The translations under genes were made by a program, and so were the position numbers. The notes below the pieces were generated by a model, which made no database searches, had not been told where the DNA came from, and saw only the letters and a list, made by a program, of their open reading frames with translations. Source: Escherichia coli (GTDB lineage Bacteria; Pseudomonadota; Gammaproteobacteria; Enterobacterales; Enterobacteriaceae). From it: a stretch of 64,000 nucleotides of DNA. The DNA lies in the NCBI RefSeq assembly GCF_051903065.1, contig NZ_CP178438.1. One strand, given 5' to 3'. Position 1 is the first letter of the stretch. Every line of letters starts with the position of its first letter. Below are positions 2,863-26,559 of the stretch, piece by piece.

Positions 2863-3579
2863 TCAGTTTGCCAGCGCCGCCTTCTGCGTCGCTACAATGG
2901 ATTCGATTCCCCCTCGGGCCAGCGCCAACAAGGTGAGTAGCTCTTCATGGGTGAACGGCTCGCCTTCTGCCGTCCCCTGCACTTCAATGATGCGCCCGTC
3001 TTCGGTCATCACTACGTTCATGTCGGTCTCTGCGGCAGAGTCTTCAACGTATTCCAGATCGCAAACCGCTTCGCCGTTCACAATCCCGACAGAAACCGCG
3101 GCTACCATCCCTTTCATCGGGTTGGTTTTCAGCTTGCCGTTTTCCACCAGCTTCTGTAGCGCATCTGCCAGCGCCACACAGGCACCCGTAATCGAAGCGG
3201 TACGCGTGCCACCATCAGCCTGAAGCACGTCGCAGTCCAGCGTAATGGTGAACTCACCCAGCGCTTTCAAATCTACTGCCGCGCGAAGCGCACGGGCGAT
3301 CAGACGCTGGATTTCCATTGTGCGTCCACCCTGCTTACCTTTCGCCGCTTCACGAGCGTTACGGGTGTGGGTAGAACGTGGCAGCATGCCGTACTCTGCG
3401 GTGATCCAGCCCTGGCCCTGACCTTTCAGGAAGCGCGGCACGCCTTCTTCAATAGAGGCGGTACACAACACTTTGGTATCGCCAAATTCGACCAGCACCG
3501 AGCCTTCTGCATGTTTTGTATAGTTACGAGTCAGGGTAACGGGACGCACCTGATTATTGCTACGGCCTGCTGGACGCAT
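2863..3579 (-). CDS. rph: Ribonuclease PH, full length (238 aa)
   Basis: Translation [26 protein letters not shown]...[11 protein letters not shown] is uninterrupted to the native C-terminus. Confidence 0.95.
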
Positions 3580-3705: not shown

Positions 3706-4569
3706 ATGATCCGCAGTATGACCGCCTACGCCCGGCGTGAAATCAAGGGTGAATGGGGGAGCGCAACCTGGGAAATGCGCTCGGTAAACCAGCGTTATCT
3801 GGAAACTTACTTTCGTCTGCCGGAGCAGTTCCGTAGCCTTGAACCTGTCGTTCGCGAGCGTATTCGTTCTCGCCTGACGCGCGGTAAAGTGGAATGTACC
3901 CTGCGCTATGAGCCAGATGTTAGCGCGCAAGGTGAGCTGATCCTCAACGAAAAACTGGCTAAACAGCTGGTAACTGCCGCGAACTGGGTAAAAATGCAGA
4001 GTGACGAAGGGGAAATCAACCCGGTTGATATTCTACGCTGGCCGGGCGTGATGGCAGCCCAGGAGCAGGATCTTGACGCCATTGCCGCTGAAATTCTCGC
4101 GGCGCTGGATGGTACGCTGGACGACTTTATTGTCGCGCGCGAAACCGAAGGTCAGGCACTGAAAGCATTGATCGAGCAGCGTCTGGAAGGCGTCACCGCC
4201 GAAGTGGTCAAAGTCCGCTCCCATATGCCGGAAATCCTGCAATGGCAGCGTGAACGCTTGGTCGCGAAGCTGGAAGATGCTCAGGTTCAGTTGGAAAACA
4301 ACCGTCTGGAGCAGGAGTTGGTTCTGCTGGCACAACGAATTGACGTTGCCGAAGAACTGGACCGCCTCGAAGCGCATGTCAAAGAGACCTACAACATTCT
4401 GAAGAAAAAAGAAGCCGTTGGTCGTCGTCTGGACTTTATGATGCAGGAGTTCAACCGCGAGTCGAACACTCTTGCGTCGAAGTCTATCAATGCCGAAGTG
4501 ACAAACTCCGCGATTGAGCTGAAAGTGTTGATTGAGCAGATGCGCGAGCAGATTCAGAATATTGAATAA
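3706..4569 (+). CDS. yicC: YicC family stress-induced protein
   Basis: 287 aa ORF MIRSMTAYARREIKGEWGSATWEMRSVNQRYLE... matches YicC. Confidence 0.93.
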   Translation: MIRSMTAYARREIKGEWGSATWEMRSVNQRYLETYFRLPEQFRSLEPVVRERIRSRLTRGKVECTLRYEPDVSAQGELILNEKLAKQLVTAANWVKMQSDEGEINPVDILRWPGVMAAQEQDLDAIAAEILAALDGTLDDFIVARETEGQALKALIEQRLEGVTAEVVKVRSHMPEILQWQRERLVAKLEDAQVQLENNRLEQELVLLAQRIDVAEELDRLEAHVKETYNILKKKEAVGRRLDFMMQEFNRESNTLASKSINAEVTNSAIELKVLIEQMREQIQNIE

Positions 4570-22959: not shown

Positions 22960-23251
22960 CTACTTTTCCTTGATGCTATAGGGGTGCTGAGACCGATAAC
23001 GCATTTTGTAAACCATCCCTGTGAGAGCGAATATTCCGATATCTGGTTATTAATTTATGATTCTTGTTTTATGTGATCGTGGTAGCGTTAATTCCGCTCA
23101 TATGTCATTGTAAAATATGGATTTTATATGAACTATAATGCTTTCGTGATAATACGCTGCGTGTATTAGGCGGAAAAAACTGATCTGGGGGATGTAGAAA
23201 CTCAAGGAAGTAGCTATAATGCGCCCCGCCTCCATGTAGCAATCGAGGCGC

Positions 23252-23346
23252 GGAAGATCGTCGTCTCCGGTGAGGCGGCTGGACTTCAAATCCAGTTGGG
23301 GCCGCCAGCGGTCCCGGGCAGGTTCGACTCCTGTGATCTTCCGCCA
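23252..23346 (+). tRNA. selC: tRNA-Sec (selenocysteine tRNA, UCA anticodon)
   Basis: 95 nt sequence GGAAGATCGTCGTCTCCGGTGAGGCGGCTGGACTTCAAATCCAGTTGGGGCCGCCAGCGGTCCCGGGCAGGTTCGACTCCTGTGATCTTCCGCCA read directly; matches E. coli selC. Confidence 0.97.
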
Positions 23347-23645
23347 GTTTACCTCTTCTGAACTCTCCCAATGTCAATAAATCTCTTCTAATCCCTTGTA
23401 TATCAGTATTTATTTGTATCCAGAGGTCAACCTACTTCACCCCGTATCAAGTTTCTTTTGGGGGTACTTTAGGGGGTGTTATTTCCTATTGAAATACCAG
23501 CACCCCCATAATAGGAAAAATGTGATATATAACAACGGCTTTTAACAACATCTTTGTTATACAAGGGGTGTATTGGGGGTATCAGGTTAGTTACTGGCAG
23601 AAATCCCCCTCAGGAACATGAATTCATCAAAAGCCGGAGGATGTC

Positions 23646-24422
23646 ATGGCATTAACCGATATCAAAGTGAAAACCGCAAAACCCAAAGACAAACCCTATA
23701 AGCTTGCTGATGGCGGCGGTATGTATCTACTGATTAACACTAATGGTTCTAAATACTGGCGCATGAAGTACCGCTTTGCTGGTAAAGAAAAGATGCTTTC
23801 TATTGGCGTATACCCCGATGTAACGCTAGCCGATGCTCGCGAGAAACGCAGTGAAGCCAGGAAACTCCTCGCTGCTGGAGGCGATCCAGGGGAGGCAAAA
23901 AAGGAAGAAAAAATCGCGCAGCAAATGAGTCTGCAAAATACGTTCGAGGCTATTGCTCGCGAATGGCACCAGTCAAAAGCCGATCGGTGGTCATTACGCT
24001 ATCGTGATGAAATCATTGATACCTTTGAAAAAGACATTTTTCCCTACATTGGCAAGCGCCCTATTGCCGAAATCAAACCAATGGAGTTACTGGAAGCACT
24101 GCGTAAAATGGAAAAACGTGGAGCTCTGGAGAAAATGCGCAAGGTCCGCCAGCGCTGTGGTGAGGTGTTCCGCTATGCAATTGTTACTGGCCGGGCAGAC
24201 TATAACCCAGCCCCCGATCTTGCCAGTGCTTTAGCTACACCGAAAAAAGTACATTTTCCCTTTCTTACTGCTAATGAACTTCCCCACTTCCTCAACGATC
24301 TGGCGGGTTATACCGGAAGTATAATCACTAAGACAGCTACTCAGATCATTATGTTAACCGGCGTACGAACACAAGAACTGCGTTTTGCACGCTGGGAAGA
24401 TATCGATTTTGAGACAAAATTG
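23646..24422 (+). pseudogene. P4-type (tyrosine recombinase) integrase, N-terminal about 259 codons only; truncated by IS insertion
   Basis: MALTDIKVKTAKPKDKPYKLADGGGMYLLINTNGSKYWRMKYRFAGKEKMLSIGVYPDV... is a typical P4-like integrase N-terminus; reading frame runs into the IS inverted repeat and stops; catalytic C-terminal half is absent. Confidence 0.85.
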
Positions 24423-25479
24423 GGCTTTGTTGAATAAATCGAACTTTTGCTGAGTTGAAGGATCAGATCACGTATCTTCCCGACAACGCAGACCGTTCCG
24501 TGGCAAAGCAAAAGTTCAAAATCACCAACTGGCCCACCTACAATAAAGCCCTCATCAACCGTGGCTCCATAACTTTCTGGCTGGATGATGAAGCTATTCA
24601 GGCCTGGTATGAGTCAGCAACACCTTCTTCACGAGGCAGACCTCAGCGCTATTCTGACCTTGCCATCACGACTGTGCTGGTCATTAAACGCGTATTCAGG
24701 CTGACCCTGCGCGCTGCGCAGGGCTTTATTGATTCCATTTTTTCTCTGATGAACGTTCCGCTACGCTGCCCGGATTACAGCTGTGTCAGCAGGCGGGCAA
24801 AGTCGGTTAATGTCAGTTTCAAAACGCCCACCCGGGGTGAAATCGCACACCTGGTAATTGATTCCACCGGGCTGAAGGTCTTCGGTGAAGGCGAGTGGAA
24901 AGTCAAAAAGCATGGCCAGGAACGCCGCCGTATCTGGCGTAAGCTGCATCTCGCCGTTGACAGTAAAACACATGAAATCATCTGCGCTGACCTGTCGCTG
25001 AACAACGTTACGGACTCAGAGGCCTTCCCCGGGTTAATCCGGCAAACCCACCGGAAAATCAGGTCAGCCGCCGCCGATGGCGCTTACGATACCCGGCTAT
25101 GTCACGATGAACTGCGGCGTAAGAAAATCAGCGCGCTTATCCCTCCCCGAAAAGGTGCGGGTTACTGGCCCGGTGAATATGCAGACCGTAACCGTGCAGT
25201 GGCTAATCAGCGAATGACCGGGAGTAATGCGCGGTGGAAATGGACAACAGATTACAACCGTCGCTCGATAGCGGAAACGGCGATGTACCGGGTAAAACAG
25301 CTGTTCGGGGGTTCACTGACACTGCGTGACTACGATGGTCAGGTTGCAGAGGCTATGGCCCTGGTACGAGCGCTGAACAAAATGACGAAAGCAGGTATGC
25401 CTGAAAGCGTGCGTATTGCCTGAAAACACAACCCGCTACGGGGGAGACTTACCCGAAATCTGATTTATTCAACAAAGCC
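24423..25479 (+). mobile_element. IS903-like insertion sequence (IS5 family), 1057 bp with 18 bp terminal inverted repeats
   Basis: Left end GGCTTTGTTGAATAAATC at 24423-24440 and its exact inverse GATTTATTCAACAAAGCC at 25462-25479; single DDE transposase ORF inside. Confidence 0.88.
24500..25423 (+). CDS. IS903-family DDE transposase
   Basis: ORF ...AKQKFKITNWPTYNKALINRGSITFWLDDEAIQAWYESATPSSRGRPQRYSDLAITTVL... with DDE-type motifs (DSTGLKV, ADGAYDT); start uncertain (GTG at 24500 or upstream TTG at 24455). Confidence 0.85.
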   Translation: MAKQKFKITNWPTYNKALINRGSITFWLDDEAIQAWYESATPSSRGRPQRYSDLAITTVLVIKRVFRLTLRAAQGFIDSIFSLMNVPLRCPDYSCVSRRAKSVNVSFKTPTRGEIAHLVIDSTGLKVFGEGEWKVKKHGQERRRIWRKLHLAVDSKTHEIICADLSLNNVTDSEAFPGLIRQTHRKIRSAAADGAYDTRLCHDELRRKKISALIPPRKGAGYWPGEYADRNRAVANQRMTGSNARWKWTTDYNRRSIAETAMYRVKQLFGGSLTLRDYDGQVAEAMALVRALNKMTKAGMPESVRIA

Positions 25480-25767
25480 GGATTTCATCTGAACAACGGC
25501 CCACAGGCCGATCGACTTGCCGACCTGGAAAGAATGCTGCATCTGTTCAGCGGCAAACCGATCCCCGACAACCGGGAAAACATCACTATTCATCTGAATG
25601 AGCACATCCGGTCTGTTCAGGGTAAAGAGTGCTATGAAGATGAAATGTTCAGCATCAGATACTTTAAGAAGGGCTCCGCGCACATCACGTTCAGGAAACC
25701 AGAACTGGTTGATCGGCTAAATGATATTATAGCCAGACACTATCCGGAAATGTTACCTTCACAATAG
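25480..25767 (+). pseudogene. Orphan 3' fragment of an unidentified island gene, open from the IS edge (C-terminal 95 codons)
   Basis: Frame is open from the first base after the IS right end (GFHLNNGPQADRLADLERMLHLFSGKPIPDNRENITIHLNEHIRSVQGKECYEDEMFSIRYFKKGSAHITFRKPELVDRLNDIIARHYPEMLPSQ*); no upstream start or RBS context; family not recognised. Confidence 0.4.
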
Positions 25768-25899
25768 AGTACTAAGAATTGATTCAATTATGTATTTTAG
25801 CTTCATTCCTTCATGCAAAATCATTTGGGGGTTCTTATGGGGGTTACTCATTTATCCAACACATACAAATTATTTAAGATCAATGCATTAATACTTATA

Positions 25900-25922
25900 T
25901 TCGACTCCTGTGATCTCCGCCA
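25900..25922 (+). repeat. Imperfect direct repeat of the selC 3' end (attR-like island boundary)
   Basis: ttcgactcctgtgatctccgcca matches the tRNA 3' end ttcgactcctgtgatcttccgcca (23323-23346) except for one missing T. Confidence 0.75.
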
Positions 25923-26559
25923 AAATGCCTCTCCTGACGTTCTCCAACCCCTTGTAATACTGTCAATCCAGATATTTTCTACTGCTCAATATTCAATCGG
26001 CTTCAGGAATACCTGGTCTAAGGTTTTGTGATGGACGATGAGCGGCTGAAGAATCCGCCTGTCGGTTCTTCTGTCCTCGAACGCATCCGCGATATTCACG
26101 CCAGTATGCGCCGTGTTTATTTGCAGGTGATTTGCCCCCCTGCTGACTCTCAGCCAACTGTATCGCCATTAAGGTGAAGATGTTGTTTTACTCGCCCCAG
26201 AACACCCTTTTTTATACGACTATTCTATTTCTTTAACCGCTGGCGAAAAAAAACTGACTATAAACTTCACCAATAATCAGACTGCCATCAAGATTAATTT
26301 GTTCATTTAATATATCAAATCAACTTGTTTTATTTTTACTATCAAAAATAGCTCATTGCCTTACTATAATTAATATATAAATTCGGTAATTAATTCTTAA
26401 CATGCTTTTACTAATAATCTCAATTGCTGGCCCTATAATATTGCGCTAGCATTGCTTTCTGGTTGTATCAGCGATACTCAAAAATTCTTAATACAATACT
26501 CATTCGACTGGTACTTATTTGTAACTCAGTTATATTTTTTCGCCCGGTGATTCAGAAGA

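Follow-up and report, generated by a model that had tools for sequence, protein, structure and literature searches.

The window, that is, the whole stretch of 64,000 nucleotides of Escherichia coli DNA analyzed here (NCBI RefSeq assembly GCF_051903065.1, contig NZ_CP178438.1), contains yicI, yicJ, and the tRNA-Sec gene selC. An integrase open reading frame starts at position 23646, 299 bp after selC and on the same strand, which is the orientation of the paradigm of autoregulated promoters within attL. The spacer between the two genes holds a cluster of short G-rich repeats (Table 1). By inspection of the sequence, copies start at 23459 (TGGGGGTAC), 23471 (AGGGGGTGT), 23501 (CACCCCCAT), and 23563 (AAGGGGTGTATTGGGGGTATC), and a fifth listed copy (ATCCCCCTC) starts at 23603. 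All the copies named in the preliminary description are thus present, with the last one shifted by one base from the 23602 given there. In total, the cluster is made up of four GGGGGT, one GGGGT copy, and one weak inverted copy. In the latter (23600–23611) an A follows the G-run: the fifth copy, 23603–23611, reads GGGGGA, not GGGGGT, and is deleted in UPEC 536 and in strain STLIN13. Given its deletion in 536, this copy is dispensable.

Over the whole window, GGGGGTRY is not enriched, with 6 occurrences observed and 5.1 expected. The unusual feature is the local clustering: the four GGGGGT lie inside 120 bp, and four GGGGGT, or six GGGGT, inside 160 bp are counts that were both reached in 0 of 300 first-order Markov simulations of the window. 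The four strong copies are kept in selC islands, both within E. coli and across other Enterobacterales. An alignment of ten diverged E. coli selC attL regions, 80 to 100% identical, shows the G-runs retained, and in strain ET625 they are conserved though the 70 bp next to selC have diverged. In 65 related tRNA–integrase spacers of other Enterobacterales, GGGGGY occurs at a density of 11.4 per kb, whereas these loci contain only 0.34 per kb outside the spacers. Clustering and conservation thus dispose of the two objections that the preliminary description had raised against itself: a motif count within expectation and a lack of conservation in homologous islands. A full-text literature search for the motif strings returned unrelated papers only.

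Table 1 Features of the selC locus and of both island ends in the window. Distances with a plus sign are counted from the tRNA 3' end.
Feature	Position	Strand	Sequence and remarks
selC (tRNA-Sec)	23252–23346	+	ARAGORN; Rfam RF01852
Core/crossover region, last 24 nt of selC	23323–23346	+	Repeated at attR, 25900–25922
Three phased TC(A)AC-like elements	23426–23451	+	GTCAAC 23426, TTCACC 23436, ATCAAG 23446; 10 bp apart
Putative arm-type site P'1	23458–23469	+	TTGGGGGTACTT; canonical +119; P4 equivalent TTGGGGGCATAA at +120
Putative arm-type site P'2	23470–23481	+	TAGGGGGTGTTA; canonical +131, 12 bp after P'1; P4 equivalent TTGGGGGCATCT at +132
Putative arm-type site P'3, inverted	23498–23509	−	ATGGGGGTGCTG; canonical +156; P4 inverted copy at +156
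Interval matching the UPEC 536 IHF site	23542–23563		TAACAAC repeats and TTGTTATA; between the 5' ends of MC125 and MC124
Putative arm-type site P'4	23562–23573	+	CAAGGGGTGTAT; four Gs; first site of the int-proximal module; conserved at +223 to +225
Putative arm-type site P'5	23573–23584	+	TTGGGGGTATCA; 11 bp after P'4; conserved at +232 to +236
Weak, doubtful inverted copy	23600–23611	−	GAGGGGGATTTC; 30 bp after P'5; geometry as in the first module and P4 (30–31 bp)
P4-family integrase gene, 5' part	23646–24422	+	Codons 1–259 of 394; arm-binding domain; cut by the IS element
IS903B-like (IS5-family) element	24423–25479	+	1057 bp; terminal repeats GGCTTTGTTGAATAAATC, perfect
Putative P-arm pair	25825–25848	+	TTGGGGGTTCTT and ATGGGGGTTACT; GGGGGTT type; 12-bp spacing
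IHF-consensus-like site	25878–25890	+	GATCAATGCATTA; one mismatch; between P-arm pair and core
attR core	25900–25922	+	TTCGACTCCTGTGATCT-CCGCCA; selC 3'-end direct repeat with a one-nucleotide deletion

A close counterpart of this arrangement is found in phage P4, whose record (NC_001609) lists six "attP arm sequence repeats" of 12 bp that read TTGGGGGCAT. The window motif, TTGGGGGTRY, shows one systematic difference from this form, a T for the C after the G-run; the arm-motif set compared with the P4 repeats comprised TTGGGGGTAC, TAGGGGGTGT, the inverted ATGGGGGTGC, AAGGGGTGTA, and TTGGGGGTAT. Read on the int strand, P4 presents GTGGGGGCACAA and AAGGGGGCATAT, then the core (the leuX 3' end), 112 nt, the tandem pair TTGGGGGCATAA and TTGGGGGCATCT, and finally the inverted TTGGGGGCACAT, which overlaps the int ATG. 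Measured at the base after the G-run and from the tRNA 3' end, the first two direct sites and the inverted one lie at 119, 131, and 156 in the window and at 120, 132, and 156 in P4. The P4 attP arm repeats and the Int-autoregulated promoter Pint were reportedly described by Pierson and Kahn in 1987, Cali et al. in 2004, and Piazzolla et al. in 2006.

This geometry is a property of the family. We scanned one genome per species, which gave 80 related Enterobacterales integrase loci, 58 to 95% identical, with the integrase on the same strand after tRNA-Sec, Arg, Thr, Phe, Ser, Gly, or Asn. A pair 12 bp apart and an inverted copy about 25 to 30 bp later recur at fixed positions in about 45 distinct loci (at tRNA-Sec, Thr, Arg, Phe, Asn, and Ser). 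Loci devoid of G-runs—those at tRNA-Gly and some at tRNA-Ser and tRNA-Sec—build the identical architecture from TGTATAG. This motif was seen in 18 loci, at tRNA-Gly and tRNA-Ser and at some tRNA-Arg and tRNA-Sec genes; the pair is again 12 bp apart, the inverted copies abut the ATG, and some of these loci carry extra inverted copies. For the phage integrase relatives HK633 and Chronis, attP lies downstream of int, and hence they offer no comparison for an arm upstream of int.

Three phased elements precede the first G-run in the spacer. The consensus of 45 anchored P' arms reads gTCaAcc....TC.Acc..aATCAAg; the last phased element (ATCAA) is invariant in the family, and ATCAAGT is invariant in the alignment of the ten E. 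coli attL regions. As judged from their sequence, the phased TC(A)AC elements could be candidate excisionase sites of the Vis/AlpA type, IHF sites, or the remnant of a P4-type −35 element. In P4 and some relatives, the last TC(A)AC-like repeat overlaps a good −35 (TTGAAA).

The window bears more than the P4 layout. The first module is followed, 103 bp further downstream and nearer to the int ATG, by a second one with a matching internal spacing of 11 and 30 bp; this second module is found in loci with spacers of roughly 295 to 300 bp. The O157:H7 form shows a 107-bp deletion, by which the second pair comes to lie at the canonical +120/+131. In E. coli O157:H7 strain 1130, the ends of this deletion fall in the first and second arm pairs (alignment columns 131–238), so that it looks like a recombination between repeats that restored the single-module layout of P4. 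Other rearrangements were noted in passing. Two loci from LEE-positive E. coli (L006 and L010) kept the attL arm with its G-runs at about 3000 to 3300, with the integrase gene replaced by IS3 remnants adjacent to espF; what precedes the arm in L010 is a P4-like primase gene, not selC, which suggests tandem or rearranged elements. In Kluyvera georgiana, two tRNA-Sec genes (765–857 and 1244–1338, about 390 bp apart) lie upstream of the integrase and may represent a duplicated target or the remnant of a tandem insertion.

A pair of the same kind is present at the other end of the island. Searching without gaps for a further copy of the selC 3' end gave none, as the attR core carries a one-nucleotide deletion; attR was found by reading the sequence. 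From the start of the second G-run of the P-arm pair to the end of the attR core, the distance is 83 nt, compared with 82 nt in P4 (pair at 4174–4151). The pair is identical in E. coli B and 536. In seven diverged attR regions with unrelated upstream cargo (DUF4942 or RhuM genes), conservation is confined to the pair and the core, and it is highest in the pair. The AATCAA of the IHF-like site between them is invariant in the same alignment. A search for the IHF consensus WATCAANNNNTTR with at most one mismatch matched this attR-arm site and found none in 23347–23660. The window hence holds a complete but decayed and gutted island of 2.6 kb (23347–25922), both arms of which are intact. The sequence right after attR (25923–26170, AAATGCCTCTCCTGACGTTCTCC...) is similar to the beginning of the attL arm (GTTTACCTCTTCTGAACTCTCC...) and lacks G-run sites; the annotation of E. 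coli B has a rhuM pseudogene there, and the segment looks like the scar of an older tandem selC island.

The gutting probably goes back to an IS903B-like element, which is not flanked by a target-site duplication. Codon 259 of the integrase is linked by this element to the 3' portion of a DUF4942 gene, a junction that implies an IS-mediated deletion of about 18 kb, and about 18 kb of the island are indeed missing relative to the E. coli B island map. Only 2 of 5426 complete E. coli genomes carry this junction, and the two other genomes that have it are 23CRST027 and 23CRST031. Furthermore, the selC–int spacer is 100% identical to that of E. coli B (ATCC 11303), where the integrase is intact with 394 residues and comprises Arm-DNA-bind_3 (E = 2.8e-30), Phage_int_M, and Phage_integrase domains. 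The preliminary description had regarded the sites as preserved although the integrase is a pseudogene, which implies selection. This has to be given up: the rarity of the junction and the identity of attL with that of strains carrying an intact integrase show that the preservation reflects recency. As its integrase gene is cut by the IS element, the recombination system is dead in the window genome, its arm sites are recent relics, and with the truncated integrase an autorepression loop cannot operate in cis.

The N-terminus of the integrase matches solved arm-binding domains (3JU0, E = 1e-31; 3JTZ, E = 5e-23). Together with 3RMP, these structures of the HPI/HAI7 integrases were reportedly determined by Szwagierczak et al. 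in 2009 in the absence of DNA, and to our knowledge the base-specific contacts of these domains are not known. Among related integrases, the flavor of the arm motif covaries with this domain. In selC integrases whose catalytic parts are 82 to 95% identical to the window type, the N-domain (90 residues) is 71 to 94% identical in GGGGGT loci versus 63 to 69% in GGGGGC loci; inside the window's own GGGGGT lineage it is 83 to 94% identical. This is the pattern expected if arm-binding domain and arm sites had been exchanged together.

On the level of single residues, position 50 is M, L, or V in 21/21 GGGGGT loci and R or K in 35/35 GGGGGC loci. Split by flavor, R accompanies G5-CA (21/22), K accompanies G5-CY (13/13), and M, L, or V accompanies G5-TR (20/20)—counts that are phylogenetically non-independent and correspond to an estimated only about 3 to 5 independent switches. 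The T class includes Ser- and Arg-tRNA lineages with otherwise C-class-like N-termini. Residue 29 is E or Q with CA and L or I with T. In an AlphaFold model (pLDDT 88.8), the domain forms a four-stranded sheet with residue 50, encoded by 23793–23795 of the window, in strand 4. Residues 50 and 29 are hence candidates for a recognition code of the four-stranded arm-binding domain.

For the regulation of the integrase gene, a guide is the integrase of the selC-located island I of UPEC 536, studied by Chitto et al. 2020 (PMC7286903). This island and the window agree to 94% in attL, the identity between IntI and the intact integrase of the window type is 95%, and the same pair is present in the attR of 536. 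The primers of the supplement can be placed on the window, MC125 at 23542–23561 and MC124 at 23564–23584, and both sequences are identical over the 23542–23563 interval. In 536, intI is expressed from a fragment that begins at MC125 (window-equivalent 23542) and runs through intI, and IntI represses it strongly (PMC7286903). The last 104 bp before the ATG act as the promoter, which is autorepressed by IntI and modulated by IHF (PMC7286903). Single-chain IHF binds in gel shifts only when the MC125–MC124 interval is present, and removal of this interval yields about 20-fold more promoter-ON cells (PMC7286903). That study neither mapped IntI binding sites nor noted the G-run repeats. Since the fragment sufficient for autorepression holds only the proximal pair P'4/P'5, this pair is the likely operator, with P'5 as the probable operator of the int promoter; both the exact sites touched by the integrase and the choice of the operator among them are inferred positions.

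Similar behavior is documented for the selC-located intL of strain EDL933, whose promoter is autorepressed about 4-fold by IntL (Panis et al. 2010, PMC2951348), and both papers cite autorepression of P4 Int by direct DNA binding (PMC2951348, PMC7286903). The "regulated promoter" put forward in the preliminary description is thus supported by published work on the 94%-identical 536 homologue and on O157 intL; by analogy, promoter, autorepression, and IHF binding would extend to the window sequence. Between 23200 and 23800, neither a consensus sigma-70 promoter on the plus strand nor a terminator-like site was found. The P4-type promoter TTGAAA-18-CATAAT, which overlaps site 1 in P4 and several relatives, is degenerate in the window (4/12 matches). 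The promoter position hence rests on the 536 plasmid constructs. The sole consensus promoter match in 23200–23800 is TTGTTA-16-TATTAT on the minus strand (23535–23508); it points toward selC, in antisense, and its −10 overlaps the inverted arm site.

These observations are best explained if the repeats are arm-type sites, the P' arm, of a heterobivalent P4-family tyrosine integrase targeting selC—an assignment drawn from sequence comparison that we hold with high confidence. The arm-type recombinase sites suggested in the preliminary description are thereby strongly supported by the match to P4 in motif and geometry, by the pair at the other end of the island, and by the covariation of flavor and integrase N-domain. 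The N-terminal four-stranded-sheet domain (Pfam Arm-DNA-bind_3) would bind the WWGGGGGTRY sites, while the C-terminal domains would bind the core at the selC 3' end. Bending proteins such as IHF would let one integrase bridge arm and core and thus form the intasome for integration and excision. The attachment site would accordingly comprise the canonical P4 module (+119/+131 direct, +156 inverted), a lineage-specific int-proximal module, and a two-site far P arm. With the int promoter inside the arm, integrase on the proximal module and IHF between the modules would shut off the integrase's own gene. Tentatively, one might go a step further and propose both that residue 50 in strand 4 reads the bases after the G-run and that the selC lineage gained the second module and an IHF site, which build a repression loop of their own over an int promoter that has been relocated, apart from the recombination intasome; as a combined proposal, this is possible and well short of probable. 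If residue 50 acted in this way, arm specificity could be predicted from sequence and would have been swapped as a module between selC integrases. If the repression loop existed, it would account for the rare ON cells of intI expression in UPEC 536.

A protein other than the integrase might bind the G-runs, namely a recombination directionality factor or regulator of the Vis, AlpA, or Xis type. Direct repeats spaced by roughly one helical turn are the usual targets of these factors, and in the window the spacing within the pairs is 11 to 12 bp; there is also a precedent in KplE1, where the directionality factor TorI binds attL and represses intS (PMC2951348). We nevertheless consider this improbable, because the motif flavor covaries with the integrase's own N-terminal domain and residue 50, because G-run sites are found on either arm and also inverted, as are the arm repeats of P4 Int, and because autorepression in 536 needs only IntI. 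The phased TC(A)AC elements at 23426–23451 are a better candidate for a directionality factor, and for the excisionase sites that the preliminary description saw as an option at the G-runs no specific evidence emerged.

Two further readings do without an integrase. The hairpin described earlier does exist as an inverted pair, GGGGTG at 23473–23478 and CACCCC at 23501–23506, and might act as RNA or DNA, either as a terminator or attenuator of selC read-through or as a regulatory RNA; the minimum-free-energy fold pairs 23472–23485 with 23491–23507 at −19 kcal/mol. This fold is, however, no better than that of shuffled sequences (z = −1.06, 33/200 as good), no T-run or terminator-like site lies near it, and Rfam reports only tRNA-Sec and no other family. 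Moreover, the inverted arrangement recurs with other sequences (GGGGGC, TGTATAG) at fixed distances, as fits protein sites, and the O157 form lacks the inverted pair, yet its int is intact and autorepressed. We therefore rejected the hairpin as an RNA structure, a role that we regard as very improbable, and see in it P'2 facing the inverted P'3. Still less credible is a chance G-rich patch, or a G-quadruplex stretch devoid of a sequence-specific protein partner. The lack of enrichment over the whole window and the four G-runs on one strand would agree with it; the local clustering beyond all 300 simulations and positions fixed within 1 to 2 bp across dozens of species do not. Canonical relatives have two top-strand G-runs only, too few for an intramolecular quadruplex, and the TGTATAG lineages keep the architecture in the absence of any G-run. 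On the grounds of this conservation and of these lineages, both the quadruplex and the chance reading were rejected.

Read as arm-type integrase sites, the repeats bear on the pathogenicity islands for which selC is a major insertion site—among them LEE, PAI I of UPEC 536, and SHI-2—and whose stability depends on integrase binding and regulation at attL. Placing the putative integrase sites gives a concrete operator map for the published autorepression and IHF results in 536. The fixed geometry (+119/+131/+156, with the P-arm pair 82 to 83 nt from the core end) offers a simple annotation rule for the ends of P4-type islands, which worked even on a decayed island whose attR escaped the ungapped search. 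The covariation of residue 50 with the base after the G-run constitutes a testable specificity rule, and the gutted 2.6-kb island might still excise if integrase were supplied in trans. The findings leave the known integrase mechanism unchanged: a P4-type attachment-site arm doubles as the operator region of the integrase gene, which is a known kind of element. What is new is modest: a module that occurs twice, a geometry that is fixed throughout the family, and the covariation of residue 50 with the post-G-run base.

Among known systems, λ Int with its P'1–P'3 sites and the H' IHF site offers the general scheme: a heterobivalent integrase, tandem arm sites on the int-proximal side, bending by IHF, and an attL of the form B-O-P'. 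However, the arm-binding folds are unrelated (three-stranded in λ versus four-stranded), the site sequences differ, and λ int is not transcribed from within attP. The arm-binding domains of the HPI/HAI7 integrases (3JTZ, 3RMP, and 3JU0) are closer, as the N-terminal 95 residues are homologous (E = 8e-31) and predicted to form the four-stranded sheet plus helices; the targets of these integrases, in contrast to that of the window integrase, are asn tRNA genes, and their sites are of the GGGGGC type (L093).

With the EDL933 selC-intL and the KplE1 IntS/TorI paradigm, the window shares co-oriented tRNA and integrase genes and, judging from 536, would share a promoter in attL; the negative autoregulation was measured for IntL, at about 4-fold. 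By contrast, O157 selC-intL has undergone the 107-bp deletion and is left with one module, its pair at the canonical +120/+131, and the arm-site sequences of KplE1 IntS, for which a TorI site has been mapped, are unrelated. The intI region of PAI I of 536 is the same element as that of the window, and autorepression and IHF binding were shown there experimentally; it differs by the missing fifth copy and the four Gs in the proximal site, whereas the integrase gene is destroyed in the window.

Differences from P4 concern the T(R) after the G-run as opposed to C(A) in P4, together with Met instead of Arg at Int residue 50; the target, selC rather than leuX; the second arm module along with about 135 extra bp between the canonical module and the ATG; and the P4-type promoter overlapping site 1, which is degenerate in the window. 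In common are the 12-bp site with its five-G core, the tandem pair that begins some 112 nt past the tRNA-derived core and has a 12-bp spacing, the inverted copy 30 bp after the second site, a further pair across the core at a distance of about 82 nt, int directly downstream on the tRNA strand, and the domain set of the integrase.
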